Shown: positions 3,898 to 44,886 of the stretch, one piece after another
How the letters are laid out: the number at the start of each line of letters is the position of its first letter
How positions within the stretch are numbered: position 1 is the stretch's first letter
Assembly: GCA_963663765.2 (NCBI GenBank)
Contig: CAXXUA010000005.1
Coordinates: 736,001 to 800,000 of the forward strand
Source of the DNA: Candidatus Poribacteria bacterium
GTDB taxonomy: Bacteria > Poribacteria > WGA-4E > WGA-3G
Direction: 5' to 3'
DNA length: 64,000 nt
Position numbers and translations under genes: made by a program
Notes under the pieces: generated by a model
Databases searched by the model: none
The model's input: only the letters and a program-made list of their open reading frames with translations
What the model was told of the DNA's origin: nothing

Positions 3898-4073
3898 GGT
3901 AATTCTCCTAATCCAACCCTGGTAGGCGGGGAATACCTAAATGGCATTCATACCGTTGATTTCTTGATTTCTTGATTTCTTGATTTGGTGCTTGTAAGTG
4001 CGCTGTTGAGTTTTGACATACCGGCGCGCTTACAAAGCACGCCTACAGGGTTTGGTGAAAATTAGAATTACCG
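3898..4073. repeat. MITE-like element (GGTAATTCT..AGAATTACC ends) carrying a REP-A doublet and a 60-bp micro-element
   Basis: Short terminal IRs. Internal GTAGGC..GTGCTTGTAAG and inverted TTACAAAGCACGCCTAC; micro-element at 3928-3987. Confidence 0.6.
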
Positions 4074-4152
4074 AATTAGTAAATTAATCTTCATTTAGGT
4101 TGTGCAGAAATGGACAAATTTCTATATCTACAATGTACGTAAATTGAAAATG

Positions 4153-6537
4153 CTATTTCTTGTAATGCCTGTACTTTTCTGAGAAATCAAAAGTGTTAAT
4201 TATAGAAGGCATATCCCACACAAGCACAGTTCCGTCTTTACTCCCACTCACGAGAGTTTTTCCATCAGCACTGAAAGATAGGGTAGAAACATTTTTAGCA
4301 TGTCCGCTCAGTACTTTTTTACGTTCTCCAGTTACTAAATCCCACAACTGGACATTTTCCTGTCCAATACTGGCAAGCTCACTTGCTGCCTTACTTGCCA
4401 GTACCAAACCATTAGGATAGAAAAATACACGCCAATTGGTTTTCTTATATCCAGCGATTGCCTGCTTTTGCTGTCCTGTTTCAACATCCCACAGACGAAT
4501 TGAACCGTCCATACTTGTGCTTGCGAGAGTGAGTCCATCTGGACTGAAAGTTATGCTGGAGATAGCACCTGCATGTCCGTTGAATGTTCCTTTTCGTTTT
4601 GCTGTGACAACATCCCACAAGTAGATGGAACCATCCTGATTACCACTTGCAAGTGTGGCACTATCCGAACTGAAAGCAGTAATAGAGACATTAGAAGAAT
4701 TTCCAACGATAGACTTAACTGGGTTTGAAATAGTTTGCTTGTGTTTACCGGTGACAACATCCCATAAGCGTAAAGTTCTGTCTTGGCTCCCACTTACAAG
4801 TGTTTTTCCATCTGGACTAAACGCGACACAGTTAATCTTATTCGTATGGCCTTTGAGTATGCCTTTAAGCTTTCCTGTTGTGGTATTCCATAAATGGATG
4901 TTATGCTCATTACTCACATTTGTAAATGTGCGACCTGGTTTGTTCACGTTGGTCGTTTTGGTCCTTTCTTGATCAATACTCACATTTGCAAGTGTGCGAC
5001 CATCAGGACTGAAGGAAACACCAGAGATAGTTATCGGATTATAGACTGAAGCTTTTGCTTTCTGTTGTGTCATAAGGGTGTGTTTGTATTTACCTGTATT
5101 TGCATCCCACAGTTGTATGATACCTTCTGCATTCGCTGCCACGAGGGTATCACTGTCTGGACTAAATAAAATGTTACTTCCCCGTAGGTAAATAACCTTC
5201 TGAGCTTCTGTTACAAGAGATTGGTACTGTCCCGTGCTTGTATCGCATAGGAAAATTGTGTTGTTACGGTTAATGCTTGCAACTTTACTACCATCAGGAC
5301 TCAGCGAGATACTTGTGTGATCGGGTATTAAACCTGCGTAATCTCTATAATAATATCCTATAATACTTTTCTCGTGTTTGAGGTTAGTGAGATCCCACAA
5401 GTGAATGGTATGATCCATACCCGCAGTAGCGAGTGTCTTCCCATCAGTACTTAGGCAGATGTTTCTGAGATAATAGGTGTGGTCCGCGAATTGTTTGTGT
5501 TTACCTGTAGCAATATCCCATAGGCGAAGTGTGCCGCCTTGAGTAAAACCTATAACAGACCGTTTATCCGGACTGAACAGCAAGGTTTTTATCTTTTTTT
5601 CATAGTCGGTTTGCGTTACATCTGTATCTTGGCTGGAGAAAGTTTGCTTGAGCGAACCTGTCGTTGTATCCCACAAGCGAATCGTATTGTTGAGTTCCAC
5701 AGTTGCAAGTGTGCTACCATCCGGACTGAAAAAAAGTTCTTCAATTATTTCTGTCGGTTCAAGTGGTTCAGTTATCAAACCTTGATCGGCAAATGTCCTT
5801 TTACGTTCTCCTGTGGATATATCCCATAAATAGACTGTCTTGTCATCGCTGACACTTGTAAACGTGCTACCATCCGGACTGAATGAAAGTTTGGTGACAG
5901 ATGCTGTATGTCTTGTGAGTGTTTTCTTGTGTTCCCCAGTGTCAACATCCCAAAGGCAGATTGTGTGATCCTTACTGCCACTTGCAAGTGTTTGACCATC
6001 TGGACTAAACGACAAACTACGTAAATATTCCTTATGTTTTTTGAGGATGTGTTTGGACTCACCTGAACCCACATCCCATAGTTGAATATCTTTGTAATCT
6101 ATACATGCAAATGTCTGTCCATCTGGACTGAACAAAATGAAATCGCTACTAAAAAGACTATTTGTTGGGATTTTCTTAAATGTTCCCGCGTTTACATCCC
6201 ACAGTTTAATTCCTCCTCTACCCCTAGTACTTGCAAGCGTATTTCCATCCGGACTGAAAGAGAAGATCCTATTAGCGTAATATGGGTAATTACTATCACT
6301 AAATAGAGCGAGTTCTTTGAAAGTATTGGTATCATATATCCAAATACCGAAAGATGTAGCAACAGCGAGTCGAGTATCATCTGGCGAATACTTCATATTC
6401 TCTATTAAACCTTTTCCAAGTCGTAACTTAGCACCATCGGGCAAACTCCAACGCGTGTGATCTTGTGCAGAGATATTCCAGGCAAATGAAAAAGTTGTAA
6501 TAAGGATGGTTGAAAACAAAAATATTCTGTTTTTCAT
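4153..6537 (-). CDS. Secreted WD40-repeat protein
   Basis: Signal peptide ending ISA-QD, QDHTRWSLPDGAKLRLGKG motif, many WD40 repeats. Confidence 0.92.
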   Translation of the reverse strand: MKNRIFLFSTILITTFSFAWNISAQDHTRWSLPDGAKLRLGKGLIENMKYSPDDTRLAVATSFGIWIYDTNTFKELALFSDSNYPYYANRIFSFSPDGNTLASTRGRGGIKLWDVNAGTFKKIPTNSLFSSDFILFSPDGQTFACIDYKDIQLWDVGSGESKHILKKHKEYLRSLSFSPDGQTLASGSKDHTICLWDVDTGEHKKTLTRHTASVTKLSFSPDGSTFTSVSDDKTVYLWDISTGERKRTFADQGLITEPLEPTEIIEELFFSPDGSTLATVELNNTIRLWDTTTGSLKQTFSSQDTDVTQTDYEKKIKTLLFSPDKRSVIGFTQGGTLRLWDIATGKHKQFADHTYYLRNICLSTDGKTLATAGMDHTIHLWDLTNLKHEKSIIGYYYRDYAGLIPDHTSISLSPDGSKVASINRNNTIFLCDTSTGQYQSLVTEAQKVIYLRGSNILFSPDSDTLVAANAEGIIQLWDANTGKYKHTLMTQQKAKASVYNPITISGVSFSPDGRTLANVSIDQERTKTTNVNKPGRTFTNVSNEHNIHLWNTTTGKLKGILKGHTNKINCVAFSPDGKTLVSGSQDRTLRLWDVVTGKHKQTISNPVKSIVGNSSNVSITAFSSDSATLASGNQDGSIYLWDVVTAKRKGTFNGHAGAISSITFSPDGLTLASTSMDGSIRLWDVETGQQKQAIAGYKKTNWRVFFYPNGLVLASKAASELASIGQENVQLWDLVTGERKKVLSGHAKNVSTLSFSADGKTLVSGSKDGTVLVWDMPSIINTFDFSEKYRHYKK

Positions 6538-6801
6538 AGGAAGGGACTCCAGTTATACTAATTGGGATGTTATAACATTGTAGACACAATCTGTTGAGGA
6601 TGTAGTTAGTATATCATATAACAGTTTAATCTCAAGTTATTTTGTTCAATGAGGGTGTGGAATGTCTTTGGTATTTGTCTTTTCAGAATCGCGGATTACG
6701 CGGATTGCGCGGAATATTGAGTCTTCACTTACAAATCCCGTTTCAAACATTGTATGCAAACTCTTTAGGACTTACGCAGTAATGCTTGATTTTCCCATAC
6801 C

Positions 6802-7706
6802 CATAGGTGTCAACTTAGCGATTCATATTATTGTAGGAGGGAAACCTTGAAATCCCGATTTTCTCACTCAAGGTAGGCGTGCTTTGTAAGCACGCCACCC
6901 AACTGCCACCCACCTGCAGGCGTGCTTTGTAAGCGCGCCACTCAACTGCCACCCAACTGCACCCCAATTGCAGCCGTGCTTTGTAAGCGCGCCACCCAAG
7001 CGCGCCACCCAACTGCAGCCGTGCTTTGTAAGCGCGCCACCACCTGCCACCCAACTGCAGGCGTGCTTTGTAAGCGCGCCACCCAACTGCAGCCGTGCTT
7101 TGTAAGCGCGCCACCTAACTGCAGCCGTGCTTTGTAAGCGCGCCACCCAATTGCAGCCGTGCTTTGTAAGCACGCCACCTAACTGCAGCCGTGCTTTGTA
7201 AGCACGCCACCTAACTGCAGCCGTGCTTTGTAAGCACGCCACCCAACTGCACCCCAATTGCAGCCGTGCTTTGTAAGCGCGCCACCACCTGCCACCCAAC
7301 TGCAGCCGTGCTTTGTAAGCGCGCCACCCAACTGCAGCCGTGCTTTGTAAGCACGCCACCCAAGCGCGCCACCCAACTGCAGCCGTGCTTTGTAAGCGCG
7401 CCACCACCTGCCACCCAACTGCAGCCGTGCTTTGTAAGCGCGCCACCCGACTGCAGGCGTGCTTTGTAAGCGCGCCACCAATGATAGCAGTGCTTTGTAA
7501 GCGCGCCACCCAACTGCACCCCAATTGCAGCCGTGCTTTGTAAGCGCGCCACCAATGGTAGCAGTGCTTTGTAAGCGCGCCACCAATGGTAGCAGTGCTT
7601 TGTAAGCGCGCCACCCAACTGCACCCCAATTGCAGCCGTGCTTTGTAAGCGCGCCTACCGAGATGGGGTATTTAGCAGTTGACTTTTTCTTAAGTTGACA
7701 CCTATG
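6802..7706. mobile_element. MITE shell (TIR CATAGGTGTCAACTTA) containing an expanded REP-A array
   Basis: CATAGGTGTCAACTTA at 6802 and TAAGTTGACACCTATG ending 7706; 20-bp flanking repeats 15/20 identical. Confidence 0.7.
6872..7659. repeat. Tandem array of 21 REP-A palindromes (GGCGTGCTTTGTAAGCGCGCC core, ~32-bp basic unit)
   Basis: 21 copies of GTGCTTTGTAAGC counted. Array starts GGTAGGCGTGC and ends GCGCGCCTACC; linkers are re-used, not unique. Confidence 0.9.
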
Positions 7707-7726
7707 GGTTTTAATTTTCCCATACC

Positions 7727-7869
7727 CATAGGTGTCAACTTAAGGATTTTACCTCTTGTGGGAGGGGTTTTCAACCCCGATTTTTTAGTGCATTTCCGCT
7801 CAAATCGGGGTTGAAAACCCCTCCCACAAGAGAATATGCCAACACTTTTTTCTTAAGTTGACACCTATA
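7727..7869. mobile_element. MITE (TIR CATAGGTGTCAACTTAAG) carrying a REP-C doublet
   Basis: Inverted GTGGGAGGGGTTTTCAACCCCGA pair inside; perfect 20-bp direct repeat GGTTTTAATTTTCCCATACC at 7707-7726 and 7870-7889. Confidence 0.8.
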
Positions 7870-8082
7870 GGTTTTAATTTTCCCATACCCCAAACAGAGG
7901 TATTTGATACCTTCATATATTAAAGACACAGTATTAGATTGAAAAGGGTGCATAATAAGAAAATTTTTACTAAATTTACGACTTGTGTCAGTTAATTATA
8001 TTTATGTAATATTCTATTTTACTTGGTTTATCAATTTGCTGATTTCTCTTTACTTTAATCCATCCTTATGCTTTTCTTTATT

Positions 8083-9145
8083 AGACATTATAATGATTTA
8101 GTTGCAAAGTTTAGTTAACCTCTGTTATATTAATTACAATCTTATAAATGGAGAATTACAATCTTATAAATGGAGGTTATCACATGATCATTTTTGAAAA
8201 TATCAAAGACAAAGCTAATACGCTTCTATCCCTCACTGGATATACTTTAGAGGAGTTTACAGCACTATTGCCTCATTTCTCTAAGAGTTTTTTAGAGTAT
8301 ATGGAAACACATACACTTGATGGAAAACCGCGTAAAAATCGGAAATATAAACCCTACAAGAATAGTTGTTTTGCTTCCCTTGAAGATATGTTGCTATTTA
8401 TATTAATTTACCTTCATGAAGCTCCGAAGCAAGTTCTATTCGGCACGCTCTTTGGTATGTCTCAACCTCTTACCAATAAATGGATCCACTTGCTTTTGCC
8501 GATATTGAACACCGCATTAGCAGAACTTGGAGAGGTGCCATCTCGGGATACAGACCCCGCATCTCTGCGTGGTGCTTGTGAGGTATCAACTCAAAGTCAA
8601 GAAGGAGAACTTTTTTTCATGATGGTGTAGAGCGACCCATACTGCGTCCAAAAGACCCGCAAACTCAAAAGGCGTATTATAGCGGTAAAAAGAAATGCCA
8701 TACAGTAAAAAACAATCTGATAATCAATGAACACTGCAAAGTCGTTTTATTGACACCCTCTTTTGAAGGAAGACACCATGACAAACGGATAGCTGATATC
8801 GTAGGTTATTGTGTGCCACCGGGAAGCACATTGTATCAAGATACCGGTTTTCAAGGGTTCGACCTTCCTGATGTAAACATTGTTCAACCGAAGAAAAAAC
8901 CAAAAGGTAGAGAACTTACGGATGAAGAAAAAGAAAACAATCGGAAGATAGCATCCATACGCATACGTATTGAACATGTGATTAGTGGTATCAAAAGATA
9001 CCGCATCGTCAAAGATAAACTCAGAAATTGGAAGAAAGGGTTTAGTGATTCCGTAATGGAAACCTGTTGTGCCTTACACAATTTTCGACTAAATTTCAGA
9101 CCATGGCGATATGAAACTCCTGCGATTTAATTCATTATAATGTCT
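8083..9145 (+). mobile_element. IS5-like (ISL2-type, DDE_Tnp_4) insertion sequence, copy 1
   Basis: TIR AGACATTATAATGA / TCATTATAATGTCT with ATT on both flanks. Near-identical to 35054-36094 apart from a 22-bp duplication upstream of the ATG. Confidence 0.88.
8184..9130 (+). CDS. Transposase, two ORFs joined by -1 frameshift (HTH + DDE)
   Basis: ORF1 ends ELFFMMV*; the -1 frame reads FHDGVERPILRP..YSGKKKCHTVK..DTGFQG..RIRIEH; T7 run at 8611-8617. Confidence 0.85.
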
Positions 9146-9210
9146 ATTACAAATCCCATAAAAAAGGAAGCAAAGTTTATACCAATTCAAATAAATCTTG
9201 TCTCATTAAG

Positions 9211-10667
9211 CAATACCTTCGCCAAAAATTAGTTGAATAAAATGGGCTTTTGTCCTATAGTGTTTACACTGTAATAACAAAACAAAAGGACAAATTCCCA
9301 TGTTAGAAATTATAGCACTTTTCTCAATTCTTAATCCATGTATTTCAAAAACAACGATCCATCAGTTATGTCAAGTTGTATTCGCACTGCTTGCGATGAC
9401 AGGACGGGTCACCATGTTAAATATCTCTCGTTGGACATTAAAAGGAGGTAGTTACCGCACTATACAACGCTTTTTCAACACAGTTCTTCCTTGGACGACA
9501 ATGTGTTGGACTTTTTTTCGCACACACTTGCTTGATCATGAGAGTGTTTATATCTTAGCAGGCGATGAAGTTGTCAGAAGCAAAGATGGAAAATGCACCT
9601 ATGGTTTATCACGCTTTTTTTCCTCATTGCATGGGAAAAGCATACCCGGTTTATCGTTCTTAGCCGTGTCCTTAGTCAGTGTATCTCAGCGACGTTCCTA
9701 CCCCATGGCTATTGAGCAAATCGTTCGGTGTGAAAAAACTTCAAAGCCTGCTGCCGCTCCGACTAAACAGTCAGACATCACCAACAAGACAGCAAAATCT
9801 AAAGGTGGACGTCCAAAAGGGAGCCGAAACAAAAATAAAAGAGATGTCGTTCTCAGTGATACTTTGAAACAACTTCAAACGCTGCTCAAAAAAGTGCTAC
9901 AACTAATAAATAACTTGATACCCATCCGTTATTTTGTCCTGGATGGCTATTTTGGAAATAATAACGCTCTACAAATGGTAAATCAATGTGGTCTCCATCT
10001 TATTTCAAAACTACGCACCGATGCTGCGTTGCATTTTCCACCGACAACACCTTACAAGGGACGCGGACGGCGTGCGATCTATGGAGAACGTGTCAATCCA
10101 CATAAGATTGATGAAAAATACTCTATTTTTACACAGACAGCGGACAATCTGAGAACTGATGTGTATCAAATGGAACTACACCACAAAAAGTTCCCCGACC
10201 CATTGAATGTCGTTTGTATCAAAAAAACAAACCTAACCACTAAACAGCAAGCTTACGTCTTATTATTCAGTTGTGATTTAGAACTTGACGCAGAAAAAAT
10301 GATAGATTATTATTCGCTTCGTTTTCAAATTGAGTTCAACTTTCGTGATGCAAAACAGTATTGGGGTATGCAAGGTTTCATGAATGTAAACAAAACCCCA
10401 GTGAACAATGCAGCGAATATGTCAATGTTTATGATAAATGTAAGTGCAAAACTCTCGGAAAAATACAGATGTCAAAATCCCGTATATAGTGTATTAGATC
10501 TTAAATCGCACTACCGAGGTCTGAAATATATACACGAAATATTAAAAATACTTCCGCAAAAACCTGAACCTATTGTTATTCAGCAAATCACTGAACGCCT
10601 GAGTTCAATCGGTGCTATTCACAACACTCAAGCAAATCTTAATCCTGGATAATTGGCGAAGGTATTG
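9211..10667 (+). mobile_element. IS4/IS701-like DDE insertion sequence inserted in a MITE
   Basis: 15-bp TIR CAATACCTTCGCCAA / TTGGCGAAGGTATTG; 6-bp TSD ATTAAG (9205-9210, 10668-10673). Removing it restores the MITE sequence seen at 10912. Confidence 0.88.
9300..10652 (+). CDS. DDE transposase (IS4 superfamily)
   Basis: AGDE, VLDGYFG and YSLRFQIEFNFRDAK (YREK-type) motifs. Confidence 0.88.
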   Translation: MLEIIALFSILNPCISKTTIHQLCQVVFALLAMTGRVTMLNISRWTLKGGSYRTIQRFFNTVLPWTTMCWTFFRTHLLDHESVYILAGDEVVRSKDGKCTYGLSRFFSSLHGKSIPGLSFLAVSLVSVSQRRSYPMAIEQIVRCEKTSKPAAAPTKQSDITNKTAKSKGGRPKGSRNKNKRDVVLSDTLKQLQTLLKKVLQLINNLIPIRYFVLDGYFGNNNALQMVNQCGLHLISKLRTDAALHFPPTTPYKGRGRRAIYGERVNPHKIDEKYSIFTQTADNLRTDVYQMELHHKKFPDPLNVVCIKKTNLTTKQQAYVLLFSCDLELDAEKMIDYYSLRFQIEFNFRDAKQYWGMQGFMNVNKTPVNNAANMSMFMINVSAKLSEKYRCQNPVYSVLDLKSHYRGLKYIHEILKILPQKPEPIVIQQITERLSSIGAIHNTQANLNPG

Positions 10668-11337: not shown

Positions 11338-11399
11338 TATAATACTGTAGATTTGAATCTACAAGACTGTAAGTATATTATAGATAACAATATAAGGAC

Positions 11400-15096: not shown

Positions 15097-15305
15097 ATGT
15101 AGACCATATTTCAATACAATCATGACCATAAGGTCCCTCCTATCAACGCGAGAGTGTAATTAATTCCATAATCTACCATAAATTACCGAAATTATTTATT
15201 GATCTTCTAATGGCATTCATACCGTTGATTTCTTAATTTGGTGATTCAGACAAAAACCGCGAACCAAACAAAAAACTAAATATACCTGCCTTACGATTTC
15301 AACTC

Positions 15306-17335: not shown

Positions 17336-17485
17336 AGGACTTACGCACCCAACGGTAGGCGGGGAATGCCTAAATGGCATTCATACCGTTGATTTGGTGC
17401 TTTGTAAGCGCGCTATTGGGACTTGATGTGCCAGCACGCCTACCAGGGTGGGTTAGATAGAATCACCTAATTTATTTATTAACGA
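17336..17485. repeat. Chimeric MITE: IS701-type left end, REP-A, 36-bp micro-element
   Basis: CAGGACTTACGCACCCAACGGTAGGC followed by the micro-element at 17361-17396; right part resembles 34201-34245. Confidence 0.7.
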
Positions 17486-27447: not shown

Positions 27448-27569
27448 CAGGACTTACGCACCCAACGGTAGGCGTGCTTTGTAAGCGCGCCGGAAACCGA
27501 AAAAATGCTGAAAATTACACCATTTTCGTCATAATTCTTCATCAAATCATGAAATCTGCGTAAGTCCTG
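27448..27569. mobile_element. 122-bp IS701-type MITE inserted in nuoI 3' end
   Basis: TIR CAGGACTTACGCA / TGCGTAAGTCCTG; 5-bp TSD CGTAC (27443-27447, 27570-27574); REP-A inside. Confidence 0.92.
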
Positions 27570-28650: not shown

Positions 28651-28816
28651 CAGGACTTACGCACCCAACAGTAGGCGGGGAATGCCTAAACGGCATTCAT
28701 ACCGTTGATTTCTTGATTTGGTGCTTTGTAAGCGCGCCGGAAACCTAAAAAATGCTGAAAATTACATCGTTTTCGTCTTAATTCTTGATTGGATCATGAA
28801 AACTCCGTAAGTCCTG
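28651..28816. mobile_element. 166-bp IS701-type MITE with REP-A and 44-bp micro-element
   Basis: Same TIRs; 5-bp TSD CCAAT. Closely matches the 27448 MITE plus an insert at 28677-28720. Confidence 0.9.
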
Positions 28817-32502: not shown

Positions 32503-32540
32503 GTATTATTCTTCTCCAAATCAAATGAAATAGCACTGTT

Positions 32541-33821: not shown

Positions 33822-34192
33822 GAGCTTTGTAAGCGCGCACCGAACGGTAGGCGTGCTTTGTAAGCGCGCCCCACAACTGCAGGCGTGCTTTGTAAGCGCG
33901 CCCCACAACTGCAGGCGTGCTTTGTAAGCGCGCCCCACAACTGCAGGCGTGCTTTGTAAGCGCGCCCCGTTGATTTGGTGCTTTGTAAGCGCACCCCCGA
34001 TGGTAGGCGGGGAATGCCTAAATGGCATTCATACCGTTGATTTGGTGCTTTGTAAGCGCGCTCCCCAACTGCAGGCGTGCTTTGTAAGCGCGCCCCCCAA
34101 CTGCAGGCGTGCTTTGTAAGCGCACCCCCCAACTGCAGGCGTGCTTTGTAAGCGCACCCCCCAACTGCAGGCGTGCTTTGTAAGCGCACCCC
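33822..34192. repeat. Second REP-A tandem array (~11 units) with micro-element
   Basis: GCAGGCGTGCTTTGTAAGCGCGCC units with ~31-32-bp period; micro-element 34009-34044. Confidence 0.88.
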
Positions 34193-34500
34193 GATGTTAT
34201 GCGTGGGTTAGATAGAATTACAAATTCATTTATTAATCTTCATTTAGTTTCTGTCCGCATCTGCACAAACTAAATGTTTGATGCTCAAAATGTCCAAATA
34301 ATTTTATGTTTTACTATAATCGGGGTTGAAAACCCCTCCCACAAGAGGTCAAAATCCTTAAATTGACGCTTATGGGTTTCGCATACGCTCTACCCGGGGA
34401 ATGCCAATAAGGCATTCATACCGTTGATTTGGACCTACGATATAAACTTTAAGTAACACCCATTAAATGATAATTCTTAAAACTGAATAACCCTGTCCGT

Positions 34501-36094: not shown

Positions 36095-36162
36095 ATTATT
36101 TGATTTTTGATACATCATAAACTTGAAGGTAGAGTGACAGTATCTAAATATCTACATATTTC

Positions 36163-36191
36163 TTGACATTCCTTGATATTTATGTGATACT
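36163..36191 (+). promoter_or_regulatory. Putative promoter for a leaderless tnpA transcript
   Basis: TTGACA-17 bp-(TGn)GATACT, 6 nt before ATG 36198; no SD. Confidence 0.5.
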
Positions 36192-36197
36192 ATATAC

Positions 36198-36785
36198 ATG
36201 ACTTATGTATCAGCGCGCAAAGCAAGTGAGCTGCTGGATTATACACCTGACCATTTACGGAGGTTGGCAAATGAAGGAAAGATTGATATTATCCGCACAG
36301 GAGGCGGACACAGACGCTATGATGTTGACGGATACATCAAAAGCAAATCCAAATCAATTGCAACTGTTTGCTACTGCAGAGTATCTAGCACAAAGCAAAG
36401 AGAAGACCTTGAACGACAAGTTGAATATATGCGAAGTATCTACCCCGAAGCAGAAGTTATCCGAGACATCGGAAGCGGAATCAACTTCAAAAGAAAAGGG
36501 CTTAGAACCTTATTGGAACGGCTTATGCAAGGTGATAAGCTCAAAGTTGTTATTGCCCATTGGGATAGACTCGCCCGCTTCGGTATCGACCTTATACAAT
36601 ACCTCATTGAACAAAACGGTGGCGAACTCGTGGTTCTCGATCAAACAGAACACAGTCCGCAAGAAGAACTCACGTCGGATCTTCTCGCAATCCTGCACGT
36701 CTTCAGTTGCAGAATGCACGGACTCCGAAGTTACCGTGACAAAATCAAAGAAGATAAGAGTTTATCCGACAACAGAACAACGTGA
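36198..36785 (+). CDS. tnpA: IS607 serine transposase TnpA
   Basis: MerR-like HTH (RTGGGHRRY), YCRVSS catalytic Ser, DIGSGINFKRKGL, DRLARFG. Confidence 0.95.
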   Translation: MTYVSARKASELLDYTPDHLRRLANEGKIDIIRTGGGHRRYDVDGYIKSKSKSIATVCYCRVSSTKQREDLERQVEYMRSIYPEAEVIRDIGSGINFKRKGLRTLLERLMQGDKLKVVIAHWDRLARFGIDLIQYLIEQNGGELVVLDQTEHSPQEELTSDLLAILHVFSCRMHGLRSYRDKIKEDKSLSDNRTT

Positions 36786-37854
36786 AACACTGCGTCAGTG
36801 GTTTGGCACAGCACGTTTTACTTATAATAAAACAATTGCTTTGTTGAACGAAACAGACACAAAAGCGAATTGGAAAGCGATAAAAACAGGTATTCTTCAC
36901 GATCTTCCTGATTGGAGCAAAGAAACACCGTATCAAGTGAAATCTGTTGCTATCCGTGACGCTTGTATTGCTGTCCGAGAAGCAAAGCGAAAATGCAAGA
37001 AAACAGGTCAATATCAGTCTGTTTTTTTCAAATCCAAACGTCATCCATCAGATAGTATTTTCATACCAAAGTCTGCTATAAAACCTCGCGGTGTTTATCA
37101 CACAGTGCTTGGTGATCTCAAAATGTCAGAGATGTTACCTGATAATATCTGTGACTCACGCCTCGTGAAAGAGAATGATAAATACTATCTCTGTGTTTCC
37201 TATACTGTGACAACTCCGAAGCGAAAACCAAACGGAAGTGTTGTTGCTTTAGACCCTGGCGTGAGAACATTCCTCACATATTTCCATGAGCGTGGTTTCG
37301 GATGGCTTGGACACCATGCTATCAATCGGATTCAAAGACTTTGTTCATACCTTGATAATCTTTTATCCCGTGCAATAAAAGCGACACAACAATCACGCAA
37401 GAATATGAGACGTGCTGCAAATCGCATCAGAAAACGTATCAGATATCTTGTTGACGAGTTGCATCATAAAATAGCACGTTTCCTTGTGGATACCTTTGAT
37501 ATTATCCTACTCCCTACTTTTGAGACTTCAGATATGGTAATGCGTGGAAACCGCAAACTACACAAGAAGTCTGCCCGACAAATGTTGACACTGTCGCACT
37601 ACAGATTCAAACATTTTCTAAAGCACAAAGCGAAAGAGACTGGATGTCTCGTCATTGATGTCTGTGAAGCATACACATCAAAAACAGTGTCGTGGAATGG
37701 TGAGATTAGAAAATCACTCGGTGGACGAAAGATAATAAAAGATAGCATGGGACTCAAGATGGACAGAGACTTGAATGGCGCACGCGGGATATTTTTGCGT
37801 GCTTTGGTAGATGAACCCTGGTTGCTTTCTATAAGCAACTTGCAAACCGTATAA
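36205..37854 (+). CDS. tnpB: RNA-guided nuclease TnpB, pro-Fanzor/Fanzor2-like clade; start uncertain (36205 ATG or 36736 GTG)
   Basis: KIRVYPT..WFGTARFTYN, ALDPGVRTF, ILLPTFE, EAYTSKT, DRDLNGARGI. Confidence 0.9.
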   Translation: MYQRAKQVSCWIIHLTIYGGWQMKERLILSAQEADTDAMMLTDTSKANPNQLQLFATAEYLAQSKEKTLNDKLNICEVSTPKQKLSETSEAESTSKEKGLEPYWNGLCKVISSKLLLPIGIDSPASVSTLYNTSLNKTVANSWFSIKQNTVRKKNSRRIFSQSCTSSVAECTDSEVTVTKSKKIRVYPTTEQRETLRQWFGTARFTYNKTIALLNETDTKANWKAIKTGILHDLPDWSKETPYQVKSVAIRDACIAVREAKRKCKKTGQYQSVFFKSKRHPSDSIFIPKSAIKPRGVYHTVLGDLKMSEMLPDNICDSRLVKENDKYYLCVSYTVTTPKRKPNGSVVALDPGVRTFLTYFHERGFGWLGHHAINRIQRLCSYLDNLLSRAIKATQQSRKNMRRAANRIRKRIRYLVDELHHKIARFLVDTFDIILLPTFETSDMVMRGNRKLHKKSARQMLTLSHYRFKHFLKHKAKETGCLVIDVCEAYTSKTVSWNGEIRKSLGGRKIIKDSMGLKMDRDLNGARGIFLRALVDEPWLLSISNLQTV

Positions 37855-37912
37855 GATGTGAAATGCACAGCATTGCACGGAAATATACAGGTTAATATCA
37901 TCGGAGATGAAT

Positions 37913-38335
37913 ATGGCAGTATTTTTACATACACGGGTTCGCGTAAGCGATCTTGATAAATCTATTAATTGGTATTGTGATCATTTGGGGTTCAAAGTTC
38001 GTAGCAGGAGTGACAAATCCCCCGCAGGCAACCAAATTGTGCATCTGGAACTTCCGGGCAACGCACACACACTGGAATTAACCTATTCCCCTGATTTCGA
38101 TCTTCAGGTGCAGGAAGACCTAATGCATTTTGCTATCGGTGTTCCCGATCTCGTAGAATTTTGCGACGGTTTGGATAAAGCAGGTTTGGAAATTTGGCCA
38201 GATGAGTGGCGTAAACAGTTCACATCCGGTGGCATGAAGATGGCGTTCATCACGGATCCAGATGGCTACGAAGTAGAACTATTGGAACGTAAAGACGCTG
38301 CAGGTGATCAACTGGATGTCCTCAAAGAATCCTAA
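37913..38335 (+). CDS. VOC/glyoxalase family protein
   Basis: FLHTRVRVSDLDKS, LELTY, HFAIGV, FITDPDGYEVEL. Confidence 0.9.
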   Translation: MAVFLHTRVRVSDLDKSINWYCDHLGFKVRSRSDKSPAGNQIVHLELPGNAHTLELTYSPDFDLQVQEDLMHFAIGVPDLVEFCDGLDKAGLEIWPDEWRKQFTSGGMKMAFITDPDGYEVELLERKDAAGDQLDVLKES

Positions 38336-39147
38336 GTATAGGGCCAGAACTGATTCCATGCTGTCATCCAACCTTTTGCGTGACTTTCTACGGTGACCGG
38401 ACCTGTTATTTCAATACCCGGTCTCCCTTTGAAGTCCGCGAGTTTATCTACAGTGGACACTTCAATCTTAATTGTTGTCGGTTTGGAAGGAATGTACGGA
38501 GGAACCCTCGTTAAATCTGAGAGTGCTTCTTTGGTTGCATTTTCAATCAGTTTGCGAGCTCGCACGGGTGGGATTTGTCTTGCACTGTACTTACTGAGTC
38601 CCTTTTTGACAGCAAGTGTTGGCAATTCGTCACCGAGTAGTTCTTTTGCTTCTCTACACACAGCAGTGTCCCCAGTAACAAGTGCGATCGGAACTCCGTA
38701 ATGTCCATTGAGCGCAGCGTTGACACCTGTTTCTCCAACAAGATCATCGTTGAACCAAAGGTTTCTATATTGAACTGTAGAAATTGTATGACACAGTACG
38801 CCGTCAGGTGTGTTGTTACGGGCATGCATTCCGATAAGCAAACACGCGTCACATCCATCTTTCCACATATCCTCAAATCGTCCCCAACCGTGGTGTGCGA
38901 CCCATTCACAATCGGGATGGATTTTTTCTGGTATAAGCGAATTAAATGTCCAACCTCTCCCCGCGCCATGGCAATCAACGACAACAATCTCTGTAGCACC
39001 CGCGGCTTTTGCACCGCGCACAGCAGCGTTTATCTCTTCTGTGTAGAGAAGTCTACCCTCTTCAAACATCGCAGCACCGCCATCAACTTGATCCCACACG
39101 ACGATGCCGCTTACGCCTTCCATATCCGACATAATCAATACTCGCAC
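38332..39147 (-). CDS. M55 family D-aminopeptidase (DppA-like)
   Basis: SDMEGVSG, DCHG, GMHA, LCHT, VTGD motifs. Confidence 0.9.
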   Translation of the reverse strand: MRVLIMSDMEGVSGIVVWDQVDGGAAMFEEGRLLYTEEINAAVRGAKAAGATEIVVVDCHGAGRGWTFNSLIPEKIHPDCEWVAHHGWGRFEDMWKDGCDACLLIGMHARNNTPDGVLCHTISTVQYRNLWFNDDLVGETGVNAALNGHYGVPIALVTGDTAVCREAKELLGDELPTLAVKKGLSKYSARQIPPVRARKLIENATKEALSDLTRVPPYIPSKPTTIKIEVSTVDKLADFKGRPGIEITGPVTVESHAKGWMTAWNQFWPYT

Positions 39148-39401
39148 TACTGTTTTTTCTCCTTGCTACATAAGTTGATGTATTTGAGTTTGAGTATAAA
39201 TCAATCACAGTTTGAATGCAAGTTCAATATTGGATTTAGGTGTATAAAGTTGTTGTACATATTTCACGCAAATTCCGTTCTTAACAAGTATATTGGAAAT
39301 TTATTGGATATATATTGGTTCCAAGACCAAATAACATACAAAAAATTGTTACCATCCCTTATAATATTACTAAAAAACACATTACAACAAACATAAAAAT
39401 A

Positions 39402-39812
39402 TTATGTTTTCGACAAAAACCCTTTCAGATTAAGACAAAAGTGTTGGCATTCTCTTGTGGGAGGGGTTTTCAACCCCGAATTATCTTCCTCTTTATATAT
39501 AGCAAGTTCTAATTTTGAATCAATGCTCGTTTGGGTTCGCAGCAACTGATCTAAATTTTGTTGTATCTGAAGATAGTTGGCGCGGGCATGGTTAACCTTT
39601 TGAAATTCTATGGTTCTCTCTAAGCTTGCGATAACTTCTCGTAGAATCTCGGGTGTTTCACTCAGTTCAGTTTCTAATTGTTTGAGTTTTTCTTTCATCT
39701 CCGCAAGTTGCTGTTCAACATCGGAAGAGTCTTCATTCGCGTATGTAAAAAAAGCCAGATTGCTAAAACACAAAATTGTAATAATGAATAACAGATATCT
39801 AATCGTTTTCAT
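39402..39812 (-). CDS. Secreted coiled-coil hypothetical protein; C-terminus read into a REP-C remnant
   Basis: Signal peptide and heptads; last ~25 codons (SGLKTPPTRECQHF..) come mostly from the repeat at 39428-39479. Confidence 0.6.
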   Translation of the reverse strand: MKTIRYLLFIITILCFSNLAFFTYANEDSSDVEQQLAEMKEKLKQLETELSETPEILREVIASLERTIEFQKVNHARANYLQIQQNLDQLLRTQTSIDSKLELAIYKEEDNSGLKTPPTRECQHFCLNLKGFLSKT

Positions 39813-40524
39813 TGTCAACCTCCTCTAAACTCTGCATATATTGCTTGATCTCTATAGCGTCAGGACTTTCGTCAATCTCTTTAATCTGTCGACTCCATTC
39901 TTCCCATGAAATTTCACCGGATTTAAGTGCTGCATTAAGTTCGTCCTTCTGCCTATTTATCTCAAAACTTTTTTGTCCTTTAGCGTATATCTTCTGTGAT
40001 AGCTCTACTGCTTGAGTATACAGGTTTAAAGCTTCAGCATAACCTGGACTCACCTCTTCTGCTTTTTTATCGAGTTCAACAAGTTTCTCCTGCACTTTTG
40101 CCATATCTTCAGGTGTTAAATTTACTCGTTTGATTGCATAACGCTTATCATATACATGATAAATGTAATAATCTTTATCAGTTATGTCAACATCATCACC
40201 TTCAAGAAACAACGGTTTATTAGATGGTTCATCTGATACAACCGTTTGCGCTAGTGGAATTTTGGCCCAATGGTCGCCGTGTCGTACCCATTCAAATCCC
40301 GGTTCATCTTGGGGCTTTTCTTTGTTTGAGGAAAAACCCACAACTTGTGGTGTTTCTTTCTCTGGATCCACCTCAACTTCTTCGTCTTGTTGCAGGCTTT
40401 TACGAAACGCTCCAAAATCATTCATCTGATCCCTAAACTTCACGTTATCAAAGTGCATGTAAATCATAAATACTATAAAGATAACGATGAGGAACCCCAG
40501 TCCCCAAAACATTTTCTTTTCCAT
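39799..40524 (-). CDS. Membrane-anchored hypothetical protein with HGDHW motif
   Basis: N-terminal TM (FWGLGFLIV), PGFEWVRHGDHW; AGGAG RBS. Confidence 0.7.
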   Translation of the reverse strand: MEKKMFWGLGFLIVIFIVFMIYMHFDNVKFRDQMNDFGAFRKSLQQDEEVEVDPEKETPQVVGFSSNKEKPQDEPGFEWVRHGDHWAKIPLAQTVVSDEPSNKPLFLEGDDVDITDKDYYIYHVYDKRYAIKRVNLTPEDMAKVQEKLVELDKKAEEVSPGYAEALNLYTQAVELSQKIYAKGQKSFEINRQKDELNAALKSGEISWEEWSRQIKEIDESPDAIEIKQYMQSLEEVDNEND

Positions 40525-40555
40525 TTCTATCTCCTTATTGTAAAAAGTTATCCTA

Positions 40556-40765
40556 CTATTTCGCTGTGTCCAGCGGGCAGGGGTTTAAAATTAAATTCGG
40601 ACAAATCGGTTTCAGTTCTTCAGGGGTACACTCATCGCAAATCCGATCCGTTTGATCGCAAATATTTTCAGTGACATCTGTGGTACCAAACAAGATAAAA
40701 CCACTTGCAAGCATCAACGTAAAAACAGTAATTATTGTAAGAAAGACTTTATAGTTCTGTTTCAC
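40556..40765 (-). CDS. Small exported Cys-rich peptide (69 aa)
   Basis: GTG start after GAGG; hydrophobic leader, then 5 Cys. Confidence 0.55.
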   Translation of the reverse strand: MKQNYKVFLTIITVFTLMLASGFILFGTTDVTENICDQTDRICDECTPEELKPICPNLILNPCPLDTAK

Positions 40766-41134
40766 ATTACACCTCACTATTATATCATAAATCAGCAATT
40801 TTAAAAATTCCAATATGACTTATTCCACAAAACAACGTACTTCCCCCTTGCAACAGCAAAAGTCCGCGAAAAAAACACTGTCTTGACGAAGTGCGCGCGA
40901 ACATAGTAACCAAGAAAACCTGTAGGTTTTCTAACGTTATCCTGCAGTATGTTTTTGACACAACCAACAAATGCAATAAAATAATTAATGGATATGAAGT
41001 GCAGGGGGGGCAAGTTAAGATGAAATTTTCTGTGTATAGTGAATTGATAATTTGCATAGATGGTAAACGACTTACAGATTTGTTTCTCATTAGATTAATA
41101 AAAAGTGTAATGAAAATGACAGAACATAATTCCT

Positions 41135-42225
41135 CAGGACTTACGCAGTCTCAAAGATTATTGATGGATTTGAGAGTTGATATCGCATATAATCATCCAA
41201 TAAACTTTGTTTAAGTTCATAAATTGTTTTGCCAAGTTTACGCGCAACACGTTTCAAACAGACCCATATTTGAAAACAACAGGCAATATGATTTCTTTGG
41301 GCACGCAACTTGCGACATTGACATTTGCCAATACCCGTGACTTGTTTGATCTCACGATGGAGTTGTTCAATCTTCCAACGCATACGACATTCTTGGTGTG
41401 CCGCATCCGCATCCGATTGAGATAAATCGTTTGTCACAATATATTCCGTGCGCCCGGTAGAGGAGGCTATCCGGAACAACTTGACTTGATACCCTTTTGG
41501 AAACTTCTTGATGTGCACGCTTTTCCCTTGCCGGATTTCTGTCCGGGTCCAAGATAGGTCTTGGACTTGTTGGTGCGGTTGCTCGCCATCCGTATCGTTT
41601 ACAAGACGATTTCGTTTCAGGGGCACGTAGTAAATCTTAGAAAGTTTTTCAATCGCTTTCATAACTTGCATGGAGGCATACCAAGTATCCATTAGCACCG
41701 TCCGAAACGGTATCTGTTTTTTAGAGTAAGCGTTGTGCAACATTTCCAGTAAATGGTCTATTTTGGTTTTACCATCATGATCTATGTCATAAATACGGTA
41801 ATCAATAATCCAATACTCTTCTGTCTTTGGATTGACATAGATACACGTCACAATACCAATGCCTTTAACGACTTTTTTGTCGCTACCACTCCACTGAGAA
41901 CGGAGGACCTCAATCTCTTTCGCATAGAGTTTAGGTAGCACAACATCGTCAAAAACAATGTAGCCATCATCATCAAACTCAATGTCGTTTTTGACCGAGT
42001 TCCAAAGTTCATTCGCGGGGATGTTTTCACCGCTCAGAAACCGATTGATTTGATCGTGGCTCCACTTATCAGTATGGTCTGCCATATAGGTTTGTGTAAA
42101 GTTTGTAAAACTTGATAACAAAAATTGACAATAATCTGAATATAAACTTTGTTTCTTTTCGGAAAGTGTAAATGTAATCATAATGGAATAGTATAGCACA
42201 AATCTATTATAGTGCGTAAGTCCTG
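41135..42225 (-). mobile_element. IS701-family insertion sequence (likely autonomous partner of local MITEs)
   Basis: 13-bp TIR CAGGACTTACGCA; 5-bp TSD TTCCT (41130-41134, 42226-42230). Confidence 0.9.
41141..42181 (-). CDS. IS701-family transposase
   Basis: SHDQINRFL, FDDVVL, LMDTWY, RWKIEQLHREIKQ, CQCRK..AQRNH; start inside the TIR-bounded region. Confidence 0.88.
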   Translation of the reverse strand: MITFTLSEKKQSLYSDYCQFLLSSFTNFTQTYMADHTDKWSHDQINRFLSGENIPANELWNSVKNDIEFDDDGYIVFDDVVLPKLYAKEIEVLRSQWSGSDKKVVKGIGIVTCIYVNPKTEEYWIIDYRIYDIDHDGKTKIDHLLEMLHNAYSKKQIPFRTVLMDTWYASMQVMKAIEKLSKIYYVPLKRNRLVNDTDGEQPHQQVQDLSWTRTEIRQGKSVHIKKFPKGYQVKLFRIASSTGRTEYIVTNDLSQSDADAAHQECRMRWKIEQLHREIKQVTGIGKCQCRKLRAQRNHIACCFQIWVCLKRVARKLGKTIYELKQSLLDDYMRYQLSNPSIIFETA

Positions 42226-42255
42226 TTCCTAAAATGTAGTATACTATAATTCTCA

Positions 42256-42375
42256 CAGGGTTATTCAGTTTTCCTAATTTTTGGATTTTTCCAAAAAGAA
42301 CCCCGCGGTAGGAGCGACCTCCCGGTCGCGATTTTCTCAGAAAACGACTAAAAGGCCTAAAACTATATAACCCTG
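42256..42375. mobile_element. 120-bp ISAs1-type MITE with single REP-B
   Basis: TIR CAGGGTTAT..AGTTT / AAACT..ATAACCCTG; 10-bp TSD ATAATTCTCA. Confidence 0.8.
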
Positions 42376-42465
42376 ATAATTCTCAAACAATGTCAAGTAT
42401 TTTTTTGAAAATTTTCGTTTCGCAATATTTGGATGTGATTATAACGTTGATAGAAAGTAAGGATA

Positions 42466-43857
42466 TTGATGAATAAGTCCCGAAGTGATCTGACACAAGG
42501 AAGTTTGCTACGCCATCTCATAAAACTTGCAGTGCCGATAACGTGTGGATACATCTTACAAGATGCGTTTAACATTGTTGATATGATTTTTGTTGGTAGA
42601 TTAGGTCCTGCTGCCATTGCAGCAGTTGGTTATAGCGGCAATTTGCTTAGATTAGTAGGTATTTTCTCACTTGGCATCTCAACGGGTGCGGGTATAATGG
42701 TCGCACAGTACCTTGGTGCAAGAAATCATGCACAAGCAAGCTATGTATCTATGCAGGCGATTCTACTCGCCTTTTTCTTTTCCGTTGGTATCGGTATTGT
42801 TGGGTATCCATTGGCAGAATTTGGTTTACGTGCAATAAGAACAACGGAACCGGATGTACTACAACTCGGAACAACTTACATGCATATCATCCTTGTCGGT
42901 ATCAGCACGATGTTTCTGTCAATGACACTCGGTTCTATCTTTCGTGCGGGTGGTGATGCTGTTACCCCCATGATTGTGCTGATTTTTTCTACGTTGATAA
43001 ACATCGGACTTGATCCACTTCTGATTTTCGGTCTATGGCATTTTCCGAAATTAGGCGTTGCAGGTTCAGCTTATGCAACGCTTATCGGTAGGGGTGTCGG
43101 TGTGGTCATTTTGCTTGTCCTCTGTTTCAGTGGACGCGCACCGATCTCTTTACGTAATATTCGGTTCCGCACAGATCTTGTTGAAATGCTTGACATTTTA
43201 AGGTTAGGGATTTATAGTTCTATGCAGGGATTCTGGAGACATTTTACCCGACTCGGTTTTTTGTGGGTAATAAATCCTTATGGCAAATTTGCTGGTGCTG
43301 CGTATATAATATGTATGCGGCTTCGCATACTGGTAATGAACCCCGGTTTTGGCATTGCCAACGCTGTAGCACCTGTTGTAGGTCAGAATGTAGGTGCAGA
43401 TCAGATAGAACGTGCCGAAGAAACAGCAAAGATGGGAAATATCATCGGGACAACACTCATGGTTTGCATTGGAGCACTATTCCTAATTTACCCCAATATA
43501 TTTCTTAGAATTTTTTCCGATGATTTAGAAGTCATCGGGATCGGATCAGATTTTCTTCAATGGTTGTCACCCACATTTGGATTCATAGCGTTCTCTTTAG
43601 TATTGGGTAAAGCACTAAACGGCGCAGGAGATACCTTTTCACCGATGATGATTACACTTGCTGCCCAATTAGGAGTTGGTTTGGTGCTGGTCATTCTATT
43701 ATCACATTATATCGGTCTAAAAGGTGTTTGGATCGGGATTGCACTCTCAAACGTGGTTCAAGGGGGTGCAATGTGGTTCTGGTATAGAACCGGAAGATGG
43801 AAAACAAAAAAGGTTATAAACAACGGTGGTAGGAATCCTACCAGAAAGGTGGTCTGA
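42466..43857 (+). CDS. MATE family efflux transporter
   Basis: DLTQGS, VDMIFVGRLG, RAGGDAVTPM, NIGLDPLLIFG, GVAGSAYAT. Confidence 0.93.
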   Translation: MMNKSRSDLTQGSLLRHLIKLAVPITCGYILQDAFNIVDMIFVGRLGPAAIAAVGYSGNLLRLVGIFSLGISTGAGIMVAQYLGARNHAQASYVSMQAILLAFFFSVGIGIVGYPLAEFGLRAIRTTEPDVLQLGTTYMHIILVGISTMFLSMTLGSIFRAGGDAVTPMIVLIFSTLINIGLDPLLIFGLWHFPKLGVAGSAYATLIGRGVGVVILLVLCFSGRAPISLRNIRFRTDLVEMLDILRLGIYSSMQGFWRHFTRLGFLWVINPYGKFAGAAYIICMRLRILVMNPGFGIANAVAPVVGQNVGADQIERAEETAKMGNIIGTTLMVCIGALFLIYPNIFLRIFSDDLEVIGIGSDFLQWLSPTFGFIAFSLVLGKALNGAGDTFSPMMITLAAQLGVGLVLVILLSHYIGLKGVWIGIALSNVVQGGAMWFWYRTGRWKTKKVINNGGRNPTRKVV

Positions 43858-43859
43858 AG

Positions 43860-44696
43860 ATGACAGACAAAGGTTACGATAACCCTCAACTGATAATTAC
43901 TGCGGAAACGTTGAAAGAGAGTCTTAATGATAAAACGTTTTGTATTGTGGATACACGTCCAACACACGAATATACACGCGGACATATTCCAGGTGCATTA
44001 CATCTCGACCTATTCGGGTTGAGTCTTATCAATACGAGCCAAGAAACGTATGATACATTTATGTGGATGATCGCTTATCTATTTCAACAACGCGGTATCG
44101 ATCACGCAAAAACGATTATTTGGTATGAAGATATTTCAGGGACCCGTGCCTCTCGAGGTTTATGGTTCTGTGAGTATTTAGGACATACGAATACGCAGGT
44201 ATTAGATGGAGGGTACAAAACGTGGTTAGCAGCTGACGGACCTGTCAGTACTGAAGGCGTTGAACCACCTGAAGTTCCAGAGTTTCCGATTGAAGCACAA
44301 AACGATTTACACATGTGTGTTAACAGTATACATGCTTCGTTGAACCAGACAGACTTTATCCCATTAGATACTCGGACAGATGATGAACACTACGGCAGAG
44401 TGGCGCGCGCAGAACGCGCAGGGGCAATTCCAGGTTCTATACATATAGAATGGATCAACAATCTTGACGATAGTGGTGCTTTCAAACCTGCTGCTGAACT
44501 CCGTCAAATGTATGAAGCTGCAGGAATCACACCGGAAAAGCAGGTCATGTGCTACTGACAAGGCGGATACCGCTCTTCCCAAACCTATTTAGCGTTGAGG
44601 CTCATCGGTTATCCGAAAGTCAGCAACTATATTGGGTCATGGAAAGAGTGGGGAGACCGGCTGGATCTGCCGGTTGAAATTCCTGAGGAAAAGTAA
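43860..44696 (+). CDS. Two-domain rhodanese/sulfurtransferase, probable selenoprotein (Sec at TGA 44556-44558)
   Basis: GHIPGA, LDGG, GAIPGS motifs. Read-through gives [23 protein letters not shown], completing the fold. Confidence 0.85.
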
Positions 44697-44886
44697 TAAC
44701 AATTCAAATAAATCTTGTCTCATTAAGGAATTATAATGTTTACTGGCACGGGGTTACTCTCTTCGGTAGGAGCGACCCGGGGAATGCTATATAGCATTCA
44801 TACCGTTGATTTGCCGGTCGCGACCGGGAGGTCGCTCCTACCAGATTTCCGCTGCTAATGAGACATTATCAAACGGAAATGGTATT
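44695..44886. repeat. IS630-type MITE with REP-B doublet interrupted by 35-bp micro-element
   Basis: Same unit as 10912; insert at 44779-44813. Confidence 0.8.

Follow-up and report, generated by a model that had tools for sequence, protein, structure and literature searches.

A hairpin micro-element inserted into palindromic repeats and into itself in genomes of Candidatus Poribacteria

A single-hairpin micro-element (hereafter the module) was distinguished in a 64,000-nt stretch of DNA (the window; C5:736001-800000 of genome G000) of a Poribacteria metagenome-assembled genome (MAG) of a sponge symbiont (6.35 Mb, 15 contigs, 41% G+C, 97.8% complete). The module is a real, abundant and clade-restricted entity, which has been inserted repeatedly, without target duplication and in a defined orientation, into palindromic repeats and into itself. 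With two mismatches allowed per arm, the genome carries 642 modules in 518 blocks, of which 416 contain a single hairpin, 88 contain a pair, and the remaining 14 contain between three and seven.

Structure of the module

The module has the layout GGGG-GAATGCC-(4 or 5 nt)-GGCATTC-ATACC, with a 7-bp stem, and its 3' part takes the form GTTGATTT(CTTGATTT)n, usually then G. The tail is composed of one to six TTGATTT octamers, and the whole module measures approximately 35-80 nt. In the window the copies are 35-60 nt long, their 3' part consisting of one to four (TTGATTT+N) units, while the blocks of the genome hold 1-7 hairpins; the fixed length of 36 bp given in the first-pass annotation (a model's reading of the window's sequence alone) therefore had to be abandoned.

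The same annotation had described a conserved stem with a variable loop, and this is what the module copies show. At least 6 of the 7 pairs are kept in 478 of 614 tail-anchored instances and, among double stem changes in these instances, 141 keep Watson-Crick pairing and 12 break it (copies counted, not independent events). Whole-stem variants include GAATGCT/AGCATTC (22 copies) and GAATACC/GGTATTC (17 copies), and the stem GAACGCC/GGCGTTC, together with T.G intermediates, occurs in a relative. The DNA fold of the hairpin has a predicted energy of -7.0 kcal/mol (z = -3.5). Judged from sequence comparison, the covariation of the stem supports a folded single strand. No Rfam family matching the module was found in the window.

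Module copies in the window

All six copies reported by the first-pass annotation are present. Five of them (3928, 17361, 28677, 34009 and 34396; all on the + strand) match the canonical 36-mer with at most three mismatches, 0 being expected in 100 shuffles, and the sixth (44779) is a loop and stem variant. The two partial copies are also real, but they differ in kind, since the one near 15207 is a right half and the one near 33967 a tail alone. The hosts include a repetitive extragenic palindromic (REP) sequence, REP-A, and miniature inverted-repeat transposable elements (MITEs). The copies, the remnants and one free target are as follows (^ marks the junction):

3928..3987, + strand: module with a four-unit tail and one stem mismatch (GAATACC/GGCATTC), located 3' of GGTAGGC in an inverted pair of REP-A (left arm)
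15212..15240, + strand: right half only (GGCATTCATACC and tail), with the end of a different small repeat (...TTATTTATTGATCTTC) before it
17361..17396, + strand: canonical module (loop TAAAT, single tail unit); the host is a MITE-like element, occupied in its REP-A head, GGTAGGC^...^GTGCTTTGTAAGC
27448..27569, + strand: empty copy of the MITE filled at 28677 (ends CAGGACTTACGCA and TGCGTAAGTCCTG), with the free target GTAGGC^GTGC between 27473 and 27474
28677..28720, + strand: module with loop TAAAC and a two-unit tail, in the filled site of the MITE 28651-28816
33969..33977, + strand: tail-only remnant (GTTGATTTG), read directly, which precedes a REP-A body and lacks both hairpin and host head
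34009..34044, + strand: canonical module inside one unit of a tandem REP-A array (~33890-34200)
34396..34431, + strand: module with loop AATAA; its host, CTCTACCC^...^GACCTACG, is a different one, with exact empty copies elsewhere in the genome
44779..44813, + strand: module with a 6-bp stem variant (GAATGC/GCATTC) and loop TATATA, in the loop of the palindrome GGTAGGAGCGACC...GGTCGCTCCTACC

Comparison of the filled (28651) and empty (27448) MITEs confirmed an insertion without target-site duplication: the module at 28677 cleanly splits GTAGGC^GTGC, the target that is free at 27473^27474, and the sole ambiguity is a 1-nt G. In a contig of run X7 (~98% identical otherwise), 27442 is joined to 27570 and the 122-bp MITE at 27448-27569 is itself missing; this host is thus polymorphic between close strains.

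The right half at 15212..15240 is probably a module whose loop was hit by a small repeat, or a truncated copy. A small repeat with the ends ...TTATTAATCTTCAT and ATGAAGATTAAT... (window 15140-15240; G000 C5:805602 and C2:89842) sits within the module loop or abuts the right half, producing "orphan" halves. In the filled REP-A MITE (17340-17425), the host sequence CAACGGTA, just upstream of the insertion point, is complementary to TACCGTTG of the module, and the filled site can be folded as a longer imperfect hairpin (-18.1 kcal/mol, z = -3.7) that is not seen in the other hosts; this complementarity may reflect chance or a shared ancestry with the REP head.

Insertion sites and junctions

For every tailed block of G000, 18 nt from each side were joined and the resulting junction was sought genome-wide. 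An empty-site counterpart exists for 372 of the 483 blocks, and the match extends over the full 36 nt in 336 (153 exact, 106 with one mismatch), so that the insertion without duplication proposed for the window holds across the genome. In at least 207 of the 259 exact or one-mismatch cases, the inserted segment GGGG...TTGATTTG is admissible, with a 1-nt G ambiguity and no duplication. Identification of the module as a classical MITE was rejected, there being no terminal target-site duplication beyond this single G. Filled and empty copies were found in at least eight sequence-unrelated host contexts, with the following junctions, each seen in both states:

Host REP-A head: GGTAGGC^GTGC
Further site within this repeat: TTTGTAAGC^GCGC
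Different hairpin, in its loop: CCATAC^GCGC
Host G: CTCTACCC^GACC
Host E: GAGACCC^CGCT
Host F: AATCC^TGAAAATCC
Palindromes with a GTAGG head (two): one or two of the native bases are replaced

Overall, junctions can lose or replace 0-2 target bases. Block 182 carries the module in a unique, non-repeated hairpin. In the single-contig relative G093 (4.8 Mb), the module is most often found in the loop of a different REP, REP-B (GGGAACTCC^GATTCCC), and right after GTAGGC.

The base before the module is C in 6 of 6 copies of the window and in 561 of 642 modules of the genome, and the rule that insertion always follows C is accordingly a strong tendency, not a law. The four bases 5' of the insert are most often AGGC (219), ACCC (194), ATAC (60) or TTTG (37 of 642 modules); these bases vary, only the last C is common, and the insertion step is usually C^G. 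Proximity to REP heads is pronounced: 249 of 518 blocks lie directly after a GTAGGC-like head, GTAGG or CCTAC occurs at most 15 nt from 250 of 518 (48%) vs 8% of random intergenic points, and in 218 of 518 blocks the same strand carries a host GTAGG no more than 14 nt upstream. The left junction GTAGG-C^GGGG recurs in four REP families, even where native bases have been replaced.

Nesting and number of insertion events

Among the one-hairpin blocks, 265 of 416 have one tail unit, and 67 of the 88 two-hairpin blocks have two. Self-insertion between hairpin and tail produces the order H1-H2-T2-T1, and a number of hairpins roughly equal to that of tail units is what one would predict if complete elements entered one another at this point. 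Simple slippage does not explain the stacks, because stacked hairpins usually carry different loops. Head-to-tail arrays are also present, the array of G093 comprising seven perfect 35-nt repeats.

The first-pass annotation had deduced at least three events from three host families, and had allowed that the REP-A copies might share one ancestral insertion. The former estimate was well surpassed by the host contexts listed above and by four loop subfamilies at one REP-A site (TAAAT 79, ATACG 29, AATA 14, TAAAC 12); these subfamilies, and the scatter of the filled state, speak against the latter. The scatter was assessed on a FastTree phylogeny of 217 host MITEs, from which inserts had been removed before alignment (~122 columns, a weak tree). 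For the REP-A site (73 filled copies) 55 changes were counted vs 60.7 +/- 3.0 for shuffled labels, while the second MITE site (35 copies) is clustered, with 18 changes vs 32.8 +/- 1.5. Since the second site clusters on it, the tree has power, and the scatter of first-site filling points to many gains, losses or conversions. Far more than three insertion events are implied by these sequence patterns.

These observations were weighed against passive spread, i.e. the multiplication of a few old insertions together with their host MITEs and REP arrays, shuffled by homologous recombination, gene conversion, replication slippage and deletion, which we consider improbable. It would account for host-specific loops (at site A2, AAAA in 34 of 38 copies; in host B, TTAAT in 41 of 58), for the clustering of site A2 on the MITE tree, for an orientation that follows the host, for tails and tandem arrays resembling slippage products, for the ~15-20 blocks whose left flank belongs to one host family and whose right flank belongs to another, and for the persistence of copies in genomes without a Y1 gene (see below). 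However, the eight or more unrelated contexts and the unique hairpin of block 182 need separate insertions; four loop subfamilies share one REP-A site, at which the filled state is near-random on the tree; the regular H1-H2-T2-T1 nesting with different loops is unlike slippage; and the hosts differ in relatives, G093 for example using the REP-B loop.

Two sister hairpins, CAAATGC-CATACGC-GCATTTG and CGAATGCC-ATAGG-CGCATTCG, have the same GTTGATTTG tail as the module, and either serve as its hosts or are located inside it. Because related hairpins carry this tail, the module is one member of a small superfamily of nested hairpins. Extended variants, with a second hairpin between the module arms (GCGAATGC-GCGTAT-GGCATTCGC or GAAGCATGC...GGCATGCTC), were also observed, e.g. 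at G000 C15:51486, C3:147216 and C2:108722.

Orientation and gene context

The module lies on the + strand in all copies of the window, as the first-pass annotation had stated, but genome-wide 339 modules are on the + and 303 on the - strand. None of the 518 blocks is inverted relative to the REP-A head, and the claim that the module keeps its chromosomal orientation even when the host REP is inverted was consequently dropped: the orientation is fixed relative to the target, not the chromosome. The all-plus pattern of the window is a local effect, because its host REP-A is strand-polarised by region; in the 600-800 kb segment of C5, REP-A heads are 38 + / 3 - when empty and 4 + / 0 - when filled. 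Module orientation runs opposite to cumulative GC skew on C5, C4, C3 and C6 and in the same direction on C15 and C13, a mixed outcome for the replichore comparison that had been suggested; a replichore link is possible.

Outside crude open reading frames, 470 of the 518 blocks are intergenic. They show no bias relative to the direction of the flanking genes (152 vs 146), which argues against an RNA-level role.

REP-A (GTAGGCGTGCTTTGTAAGCGCGC) is itself a prominent repeat of G000, with ~1527 unoccupied heads, many of them in tandem arrays with a period of ~33-43 nt (in the window e.g. 33890-34200 and 27470-27495). Its polarity extends over hundreds of kb (149 + / 7 - in C5 1.4-1.6 Mb; 6 + / 78 - in C4 0-200 kb). 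Some congeners have hardly any REP-A, five genomes giving 0-13 matches.

Distribution among Poribacteria

The exact hairpin pattern was detected in 93 of 176 Poribacteria genomes: 38 of 39 other genomes of the genus of the window (g1) and 53 of 65 in another genus (g6) of its family, i.e. 91 of 104 other genomes for the two genera together, 0 of 7 in the other genera of the family, and 1 of 64 outside this family. With the reversed pattern, used as a control, no genome scanned gave a match. G000 is the richest genome, with 361 exact copies, and copy number among close relatives ranges from 0 to 361. Twenty-two fixed bases are identical across both genera, while the loop sequences differ by lineage. 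A scan with one genome per species returned at least 90 stretches with the exact pattern, and among the 80 matches listed all were Candidatus Poribacteria MAGs but one, an "uncultured bacterium" MAG; viral contigs gave 0 module matches. Comparison of orthologous loci was uninformative, as the nearest species representatives show at most 89% identity in coding DNA and their intergenic repeats gave no alignment. No description of such repeats in Poribacteria was found in a literature search on palindromic repeats of this phylum, the titles and abstracts listed being concerned with CRISPR or general genomics.

Exact conservation of the stem and flanks across two genera, the intergenic location of 470 of 518 blocks, and a duplex that would combine an inverted repeat with direct TTGATTT repeats, a layout like that of protein-binding sites, are features on which a host-selected functional site (bound by a protein of the nucleoid or of replication, or DNA with a structural role) could be proposed. 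We regard this explanation as quite unlikely. The compensatory stem changes fit a folded strand better than a pair of duplex half-sites, a copy number that varies from 0 to 361 between close relatives is what selfish repeats typically show, and there is neither a positional rule relative to genes nor an Rfam match.

The module is especially dense in one region of G093 (C1:4320001-4480000; L201-L208), where 106 modules occur in 160 kb, on both strands, among ordinary large genes. The only Phage_integrase-family match of this genome (4467905-4468369) lies just beyond the last copy of the region. An integron attC interpretation was considered on account of this neighbour and was dropped in view of the large genes and of modules on both strands; a search for attC boxes (RYYYAAC ... 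GTTRRRY) found a partner for GTTGATT in rare symmetric forms only.

Candidate enzymes and mechanism of spread

We tentatively favour, at a little below an even chance, the reading by analogy that the module is part of a mosaic resembling bacterial interspersed mosaic elements (BIMEs), spread by single-strand cleavage and strand transfer of the type performed by REP-associated tyrosine transposases (RAYTs). In this scheme a RAYT-type nuclease (TnpA_REP-like, HUH/Y1) would cut the module from single-stranded DNA and rejoin it into other repeats. The Y1 enzyme, bound to a neighbouring GTAGG-headed REP, would cleave a nearby single strand with only dinucleotide specificity and transfer strands; the module would be excised, perhaps as a small circle closed at TTGATTTG^GGGG, and reinserted at any place where a REP in cis permits cleavage. 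It would then be a hitch-hiker, or hyperparasite, of the REP/RAYT system, without a transposase of its own, and its tail length would drift by octamer slippage.

Passages of PMC3333891 describe RAYT as acting on single-stranded DNA only and needing a GTAG-headed REP in cis, and as cleaving many nearby sites set by a C^T dinucleotide only, with strand transfer; the model of those authors is one of excision and re-insertion at alternative sites, giving rise to BIME variants and tandem arrays (PMC3333891). The dinucleotide is chosen by the GTAG guide, and differs or is changeable between RAYT systems, according to passages of PMC8266576. These RAYT properties agree with what is seen of the module: insertion without duplication, a minimal target (C^G), variable junctions, dependence on a REP neighbourhood, and stacking.

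In silico analysis of G000 revealed two RAYT-type Y1 genes beside REPs: (i) L095 (C4:620161-623487), intact and bracketed by inverted arrays of the GTAGG-headed REP GTAGGAGGGAACTCCGATTCCC, and (ii) L096 (C10:23646-25277), which encodes the HUH motif and directly follows a REP-A array. The genome also contains three IS605-type copies (TnpA and TnpB) and a fourth TnpA (L094); the module motif was found neither in the three copies nor at L094. A solo TnpB element (OrfB_IS605 and Cas12f1-like TNB; 27 copies, e.g. C5:293047-294243, L146), by far the most abundant coding repeat of G000, has end hairpins of its own, which differ from the module. An IS607-like element (serine recombinase and TnpB; window 36124-37905) is present in five copies of >99% identity, and its ends, GGTAGAGTGACAG... 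and ...AATATCATCGG, are unrelated to the module.

Several findings weigh against a RAYT-type origin. The hairpin has no GTAG foot of its own (GGGG on the written strand, GTAT on the other), the C^G step lies inside the REP-A stem and not at the position known from E. coli, and no single cut-site rule could be derived for all hosts, since junctions vary by 0-2 nt with the host. L096 is interrupted by a stop or frameshift and is cut by the contig end. None of the 29 IS200-type and 20 RAYT-type Y1 loci of the genus is flanked by module arrays; the module is nearby at 1 of 29 and 1 of 20, respectively, the RAYT case consisting of two copies ~1.3 kb away. At the six Y1 loci of G000, one module copy was found, only beside the truncated contig-end RAYT. 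The module is also carried by three near-complete relatives that gave no Y1_Tnp or RAYT-protein match: G093, with 91 exact copies (a single contig, 92% complete), G097, with 65 (an assembly of four contigs), and G087, with 67. G093 is devoid of REP-A as well. The copies of these genomes could be relics, yet they are exact. Neither a circle junction nor an excision was found in Logan contigs, which break at repeats. One contig skips 36 nt (34395 to 34432) with a 20-nt side, and most likely represents an empty paralogue.

The Y1-less genomes bring into view a second explanation, in which an enzyme that has escaped recognition, either a single-copy host protein or a non-Y1 nuclease or recombinase conserved in both genera, moves the module, and closeness to REP heads reflects a preference for hairpins or C^G targets. 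We consider it unlikely, although it accords with the 65-91 exact copies in three near-complete genomes without a Y1 match, with the sharp distribution (38 of 39 in g1, 53 of 65 in g6, 1 of 71 in the rest of the phylum), which is independent of REP-A, with the lack of any RAYT flanked by the module, and with the 22 fixed bases shared by two genera with lineage-specific loops, which would indicate a conserved recognition partner. On the other side, no candidate emerged: IS110 and RVT_1 are absent, the ends of the solo TnpB and IS607-like elements are unrelated, no bracketed gene recurs, and the strong association with GTAGG heads is left without explanation. A doubtful but specific form of the idea is that of a Y1-independent hyperparasite, a hairpin of ~35 nt spliced into C^G steps of hairpin-forming DNA by an unrecognised, clade-specific host activity; this would explain how the module thrives in complete Poribacteria genomes without a Y1 gene.

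A parent element, i.e. a long element with module ends enclosing a transposase, as imagined in the first-pass annotation, was not found in G000 either: no coding element lies between orphan halves, most of which are extended variants or copies interrupted by a small repeat, and the 33 genes bracketed by the module in G000 include no recurrent transposase. Several paralogous genes for putative lipoproteins (N-termini like MKRSLVILSIFLAMMLVACGGD) are bracketed by modules (G000 C4:1160421-1165376, C6:34213-47413, C6:372848 and C7:105525).

IS110-family elements are known to target REPs without duplication, and an IS110/IS1111-type (bridge-RNA) recombinase, or an RNA intermediate with reverse transcription, would thus be a further route. 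It is highly improbable. No IS110 transposase (DEDD_Tnp_IS110, PF01548) and no reverse transcriptase (RVT_1) matched in the 97.8% complete genome, whereas control genomes were positive for both (six genomes for IS110), and for G000 this route is close to refuted. For the IS91/Y2 family neither G000 nor the control genomes gave a match. What stands of the initial description is a tiny, non-autonomous insert that lands in REP palindromes without duplication and with one orientation to its target; the chromosomal + rule and the IS110-type enzyme do not.

Comparison with known systems

The module resembles the REP/BIME and RAYT systems of E. coli, Stenotrophomonas and Marinomonas, which consist, in passages of PMC3333891 and PMC8266576, of short extragenic hairpins in hundreds of copies, in mosaic and tandem arrangement. 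Shared features also include strand- or orientation-specific behaviour, no target duplication, cleavage at one dinucleotide, a GTAG-headed REP nearby and variable junctions, as far as these passages describe them, and G000 holds RAYT genes flanked by GTAGG-headed REPs. In contrast to REP/BIME sequences, the module has neither a GTAG foot nor a flanked RAYT, has a tail of octamer repeats, lies inside other REPs and itself, and persists in genomes without a detectable Y1 gene; its apparent cut is at C^G, unlike the C^T or C^A of RAYT systems. Like a REP, it is an extragenic, high-copy palindrome with a covarying stem, but it is set apart from true REPs because it has neither a GTAG foot of its own nor a cognate REPtron. 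In its behaviour it comes nearest to a component of a BIME, of which it is a variant and not a member. In vivo spread of REP/BIME sequences is itself unsettled, RAYT activity having been shown only in vitro according to passages of PMC8266576.

Passages on REPINs (PMC3116915) describe elements that are, like the module, non-autonomous, RAYT-associated, vertically persistent and confined to a clade. REPINs are inverted REP doublets, whereas the module is a single asymmetric hairpin or a direct stack; symmetric doublet forms number three or four among 604 tail-bearing matches (e.g. C4:107367 and C5:581182). The IS200/IS605 elements and their hairpin-ended miniatures share single-strand hairpin recognition, the lack of duplication and oriented insertion 3' of a short target, as outlined in parts of PMC3333891. 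They differ in that the module has one hairpin only, ends unrelated to those of the resident IS605-type, solo-TnpB and IS607-type elements, and a target limited to C^G. Insertion sequences that target REPs, such as IS1397, also use REP palindromes as landing sites, judging from titles in the reference list of PMC3116915; these are full-length elements with transposase genes, unlike the non-coding module of 35-80 nt.

A likeness to the small dispersed repeats (SDR1-8) of Nostoc is seen in very small size, precise insertion in other repeats and confinement to one clade. In passages citing the SDR work (PMC5861425, PMC4390886 and PMC13756078), SDRs are 21-27 nt long, and SDR5 is inserted between the 3rd and 4th bases of HIP1. 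The likeness is one of behaviour only, as the module belongs to Poribacteria and the SDRs to cyanobacteria, with unrelated sequences. The SDRs of Elhai et al. 2008 reportedly also nest in themselves and adjoin tandem heptamers.

Significance

For one tiny module, G000 preserves several hundred sites, filled or empty, along with variants of the junctions and cases of self-nesting; from this natural archive the target rules, the positions of cutting and the succession of events can be deduced. The repeats formed by the module break short-read assemblies of sponge symbionts, and its lineage-specific loops could be used as strain markers. If its movement is independent of Y1 enzymes, the module would represent a new way of moving very short DNA and a link to the unexplained small dispersed repeats of cyanobacteria; it would then rank with the smallest mobile DNAs on record, comparable in size to the SDRs and perhaps sharing their mechanism.

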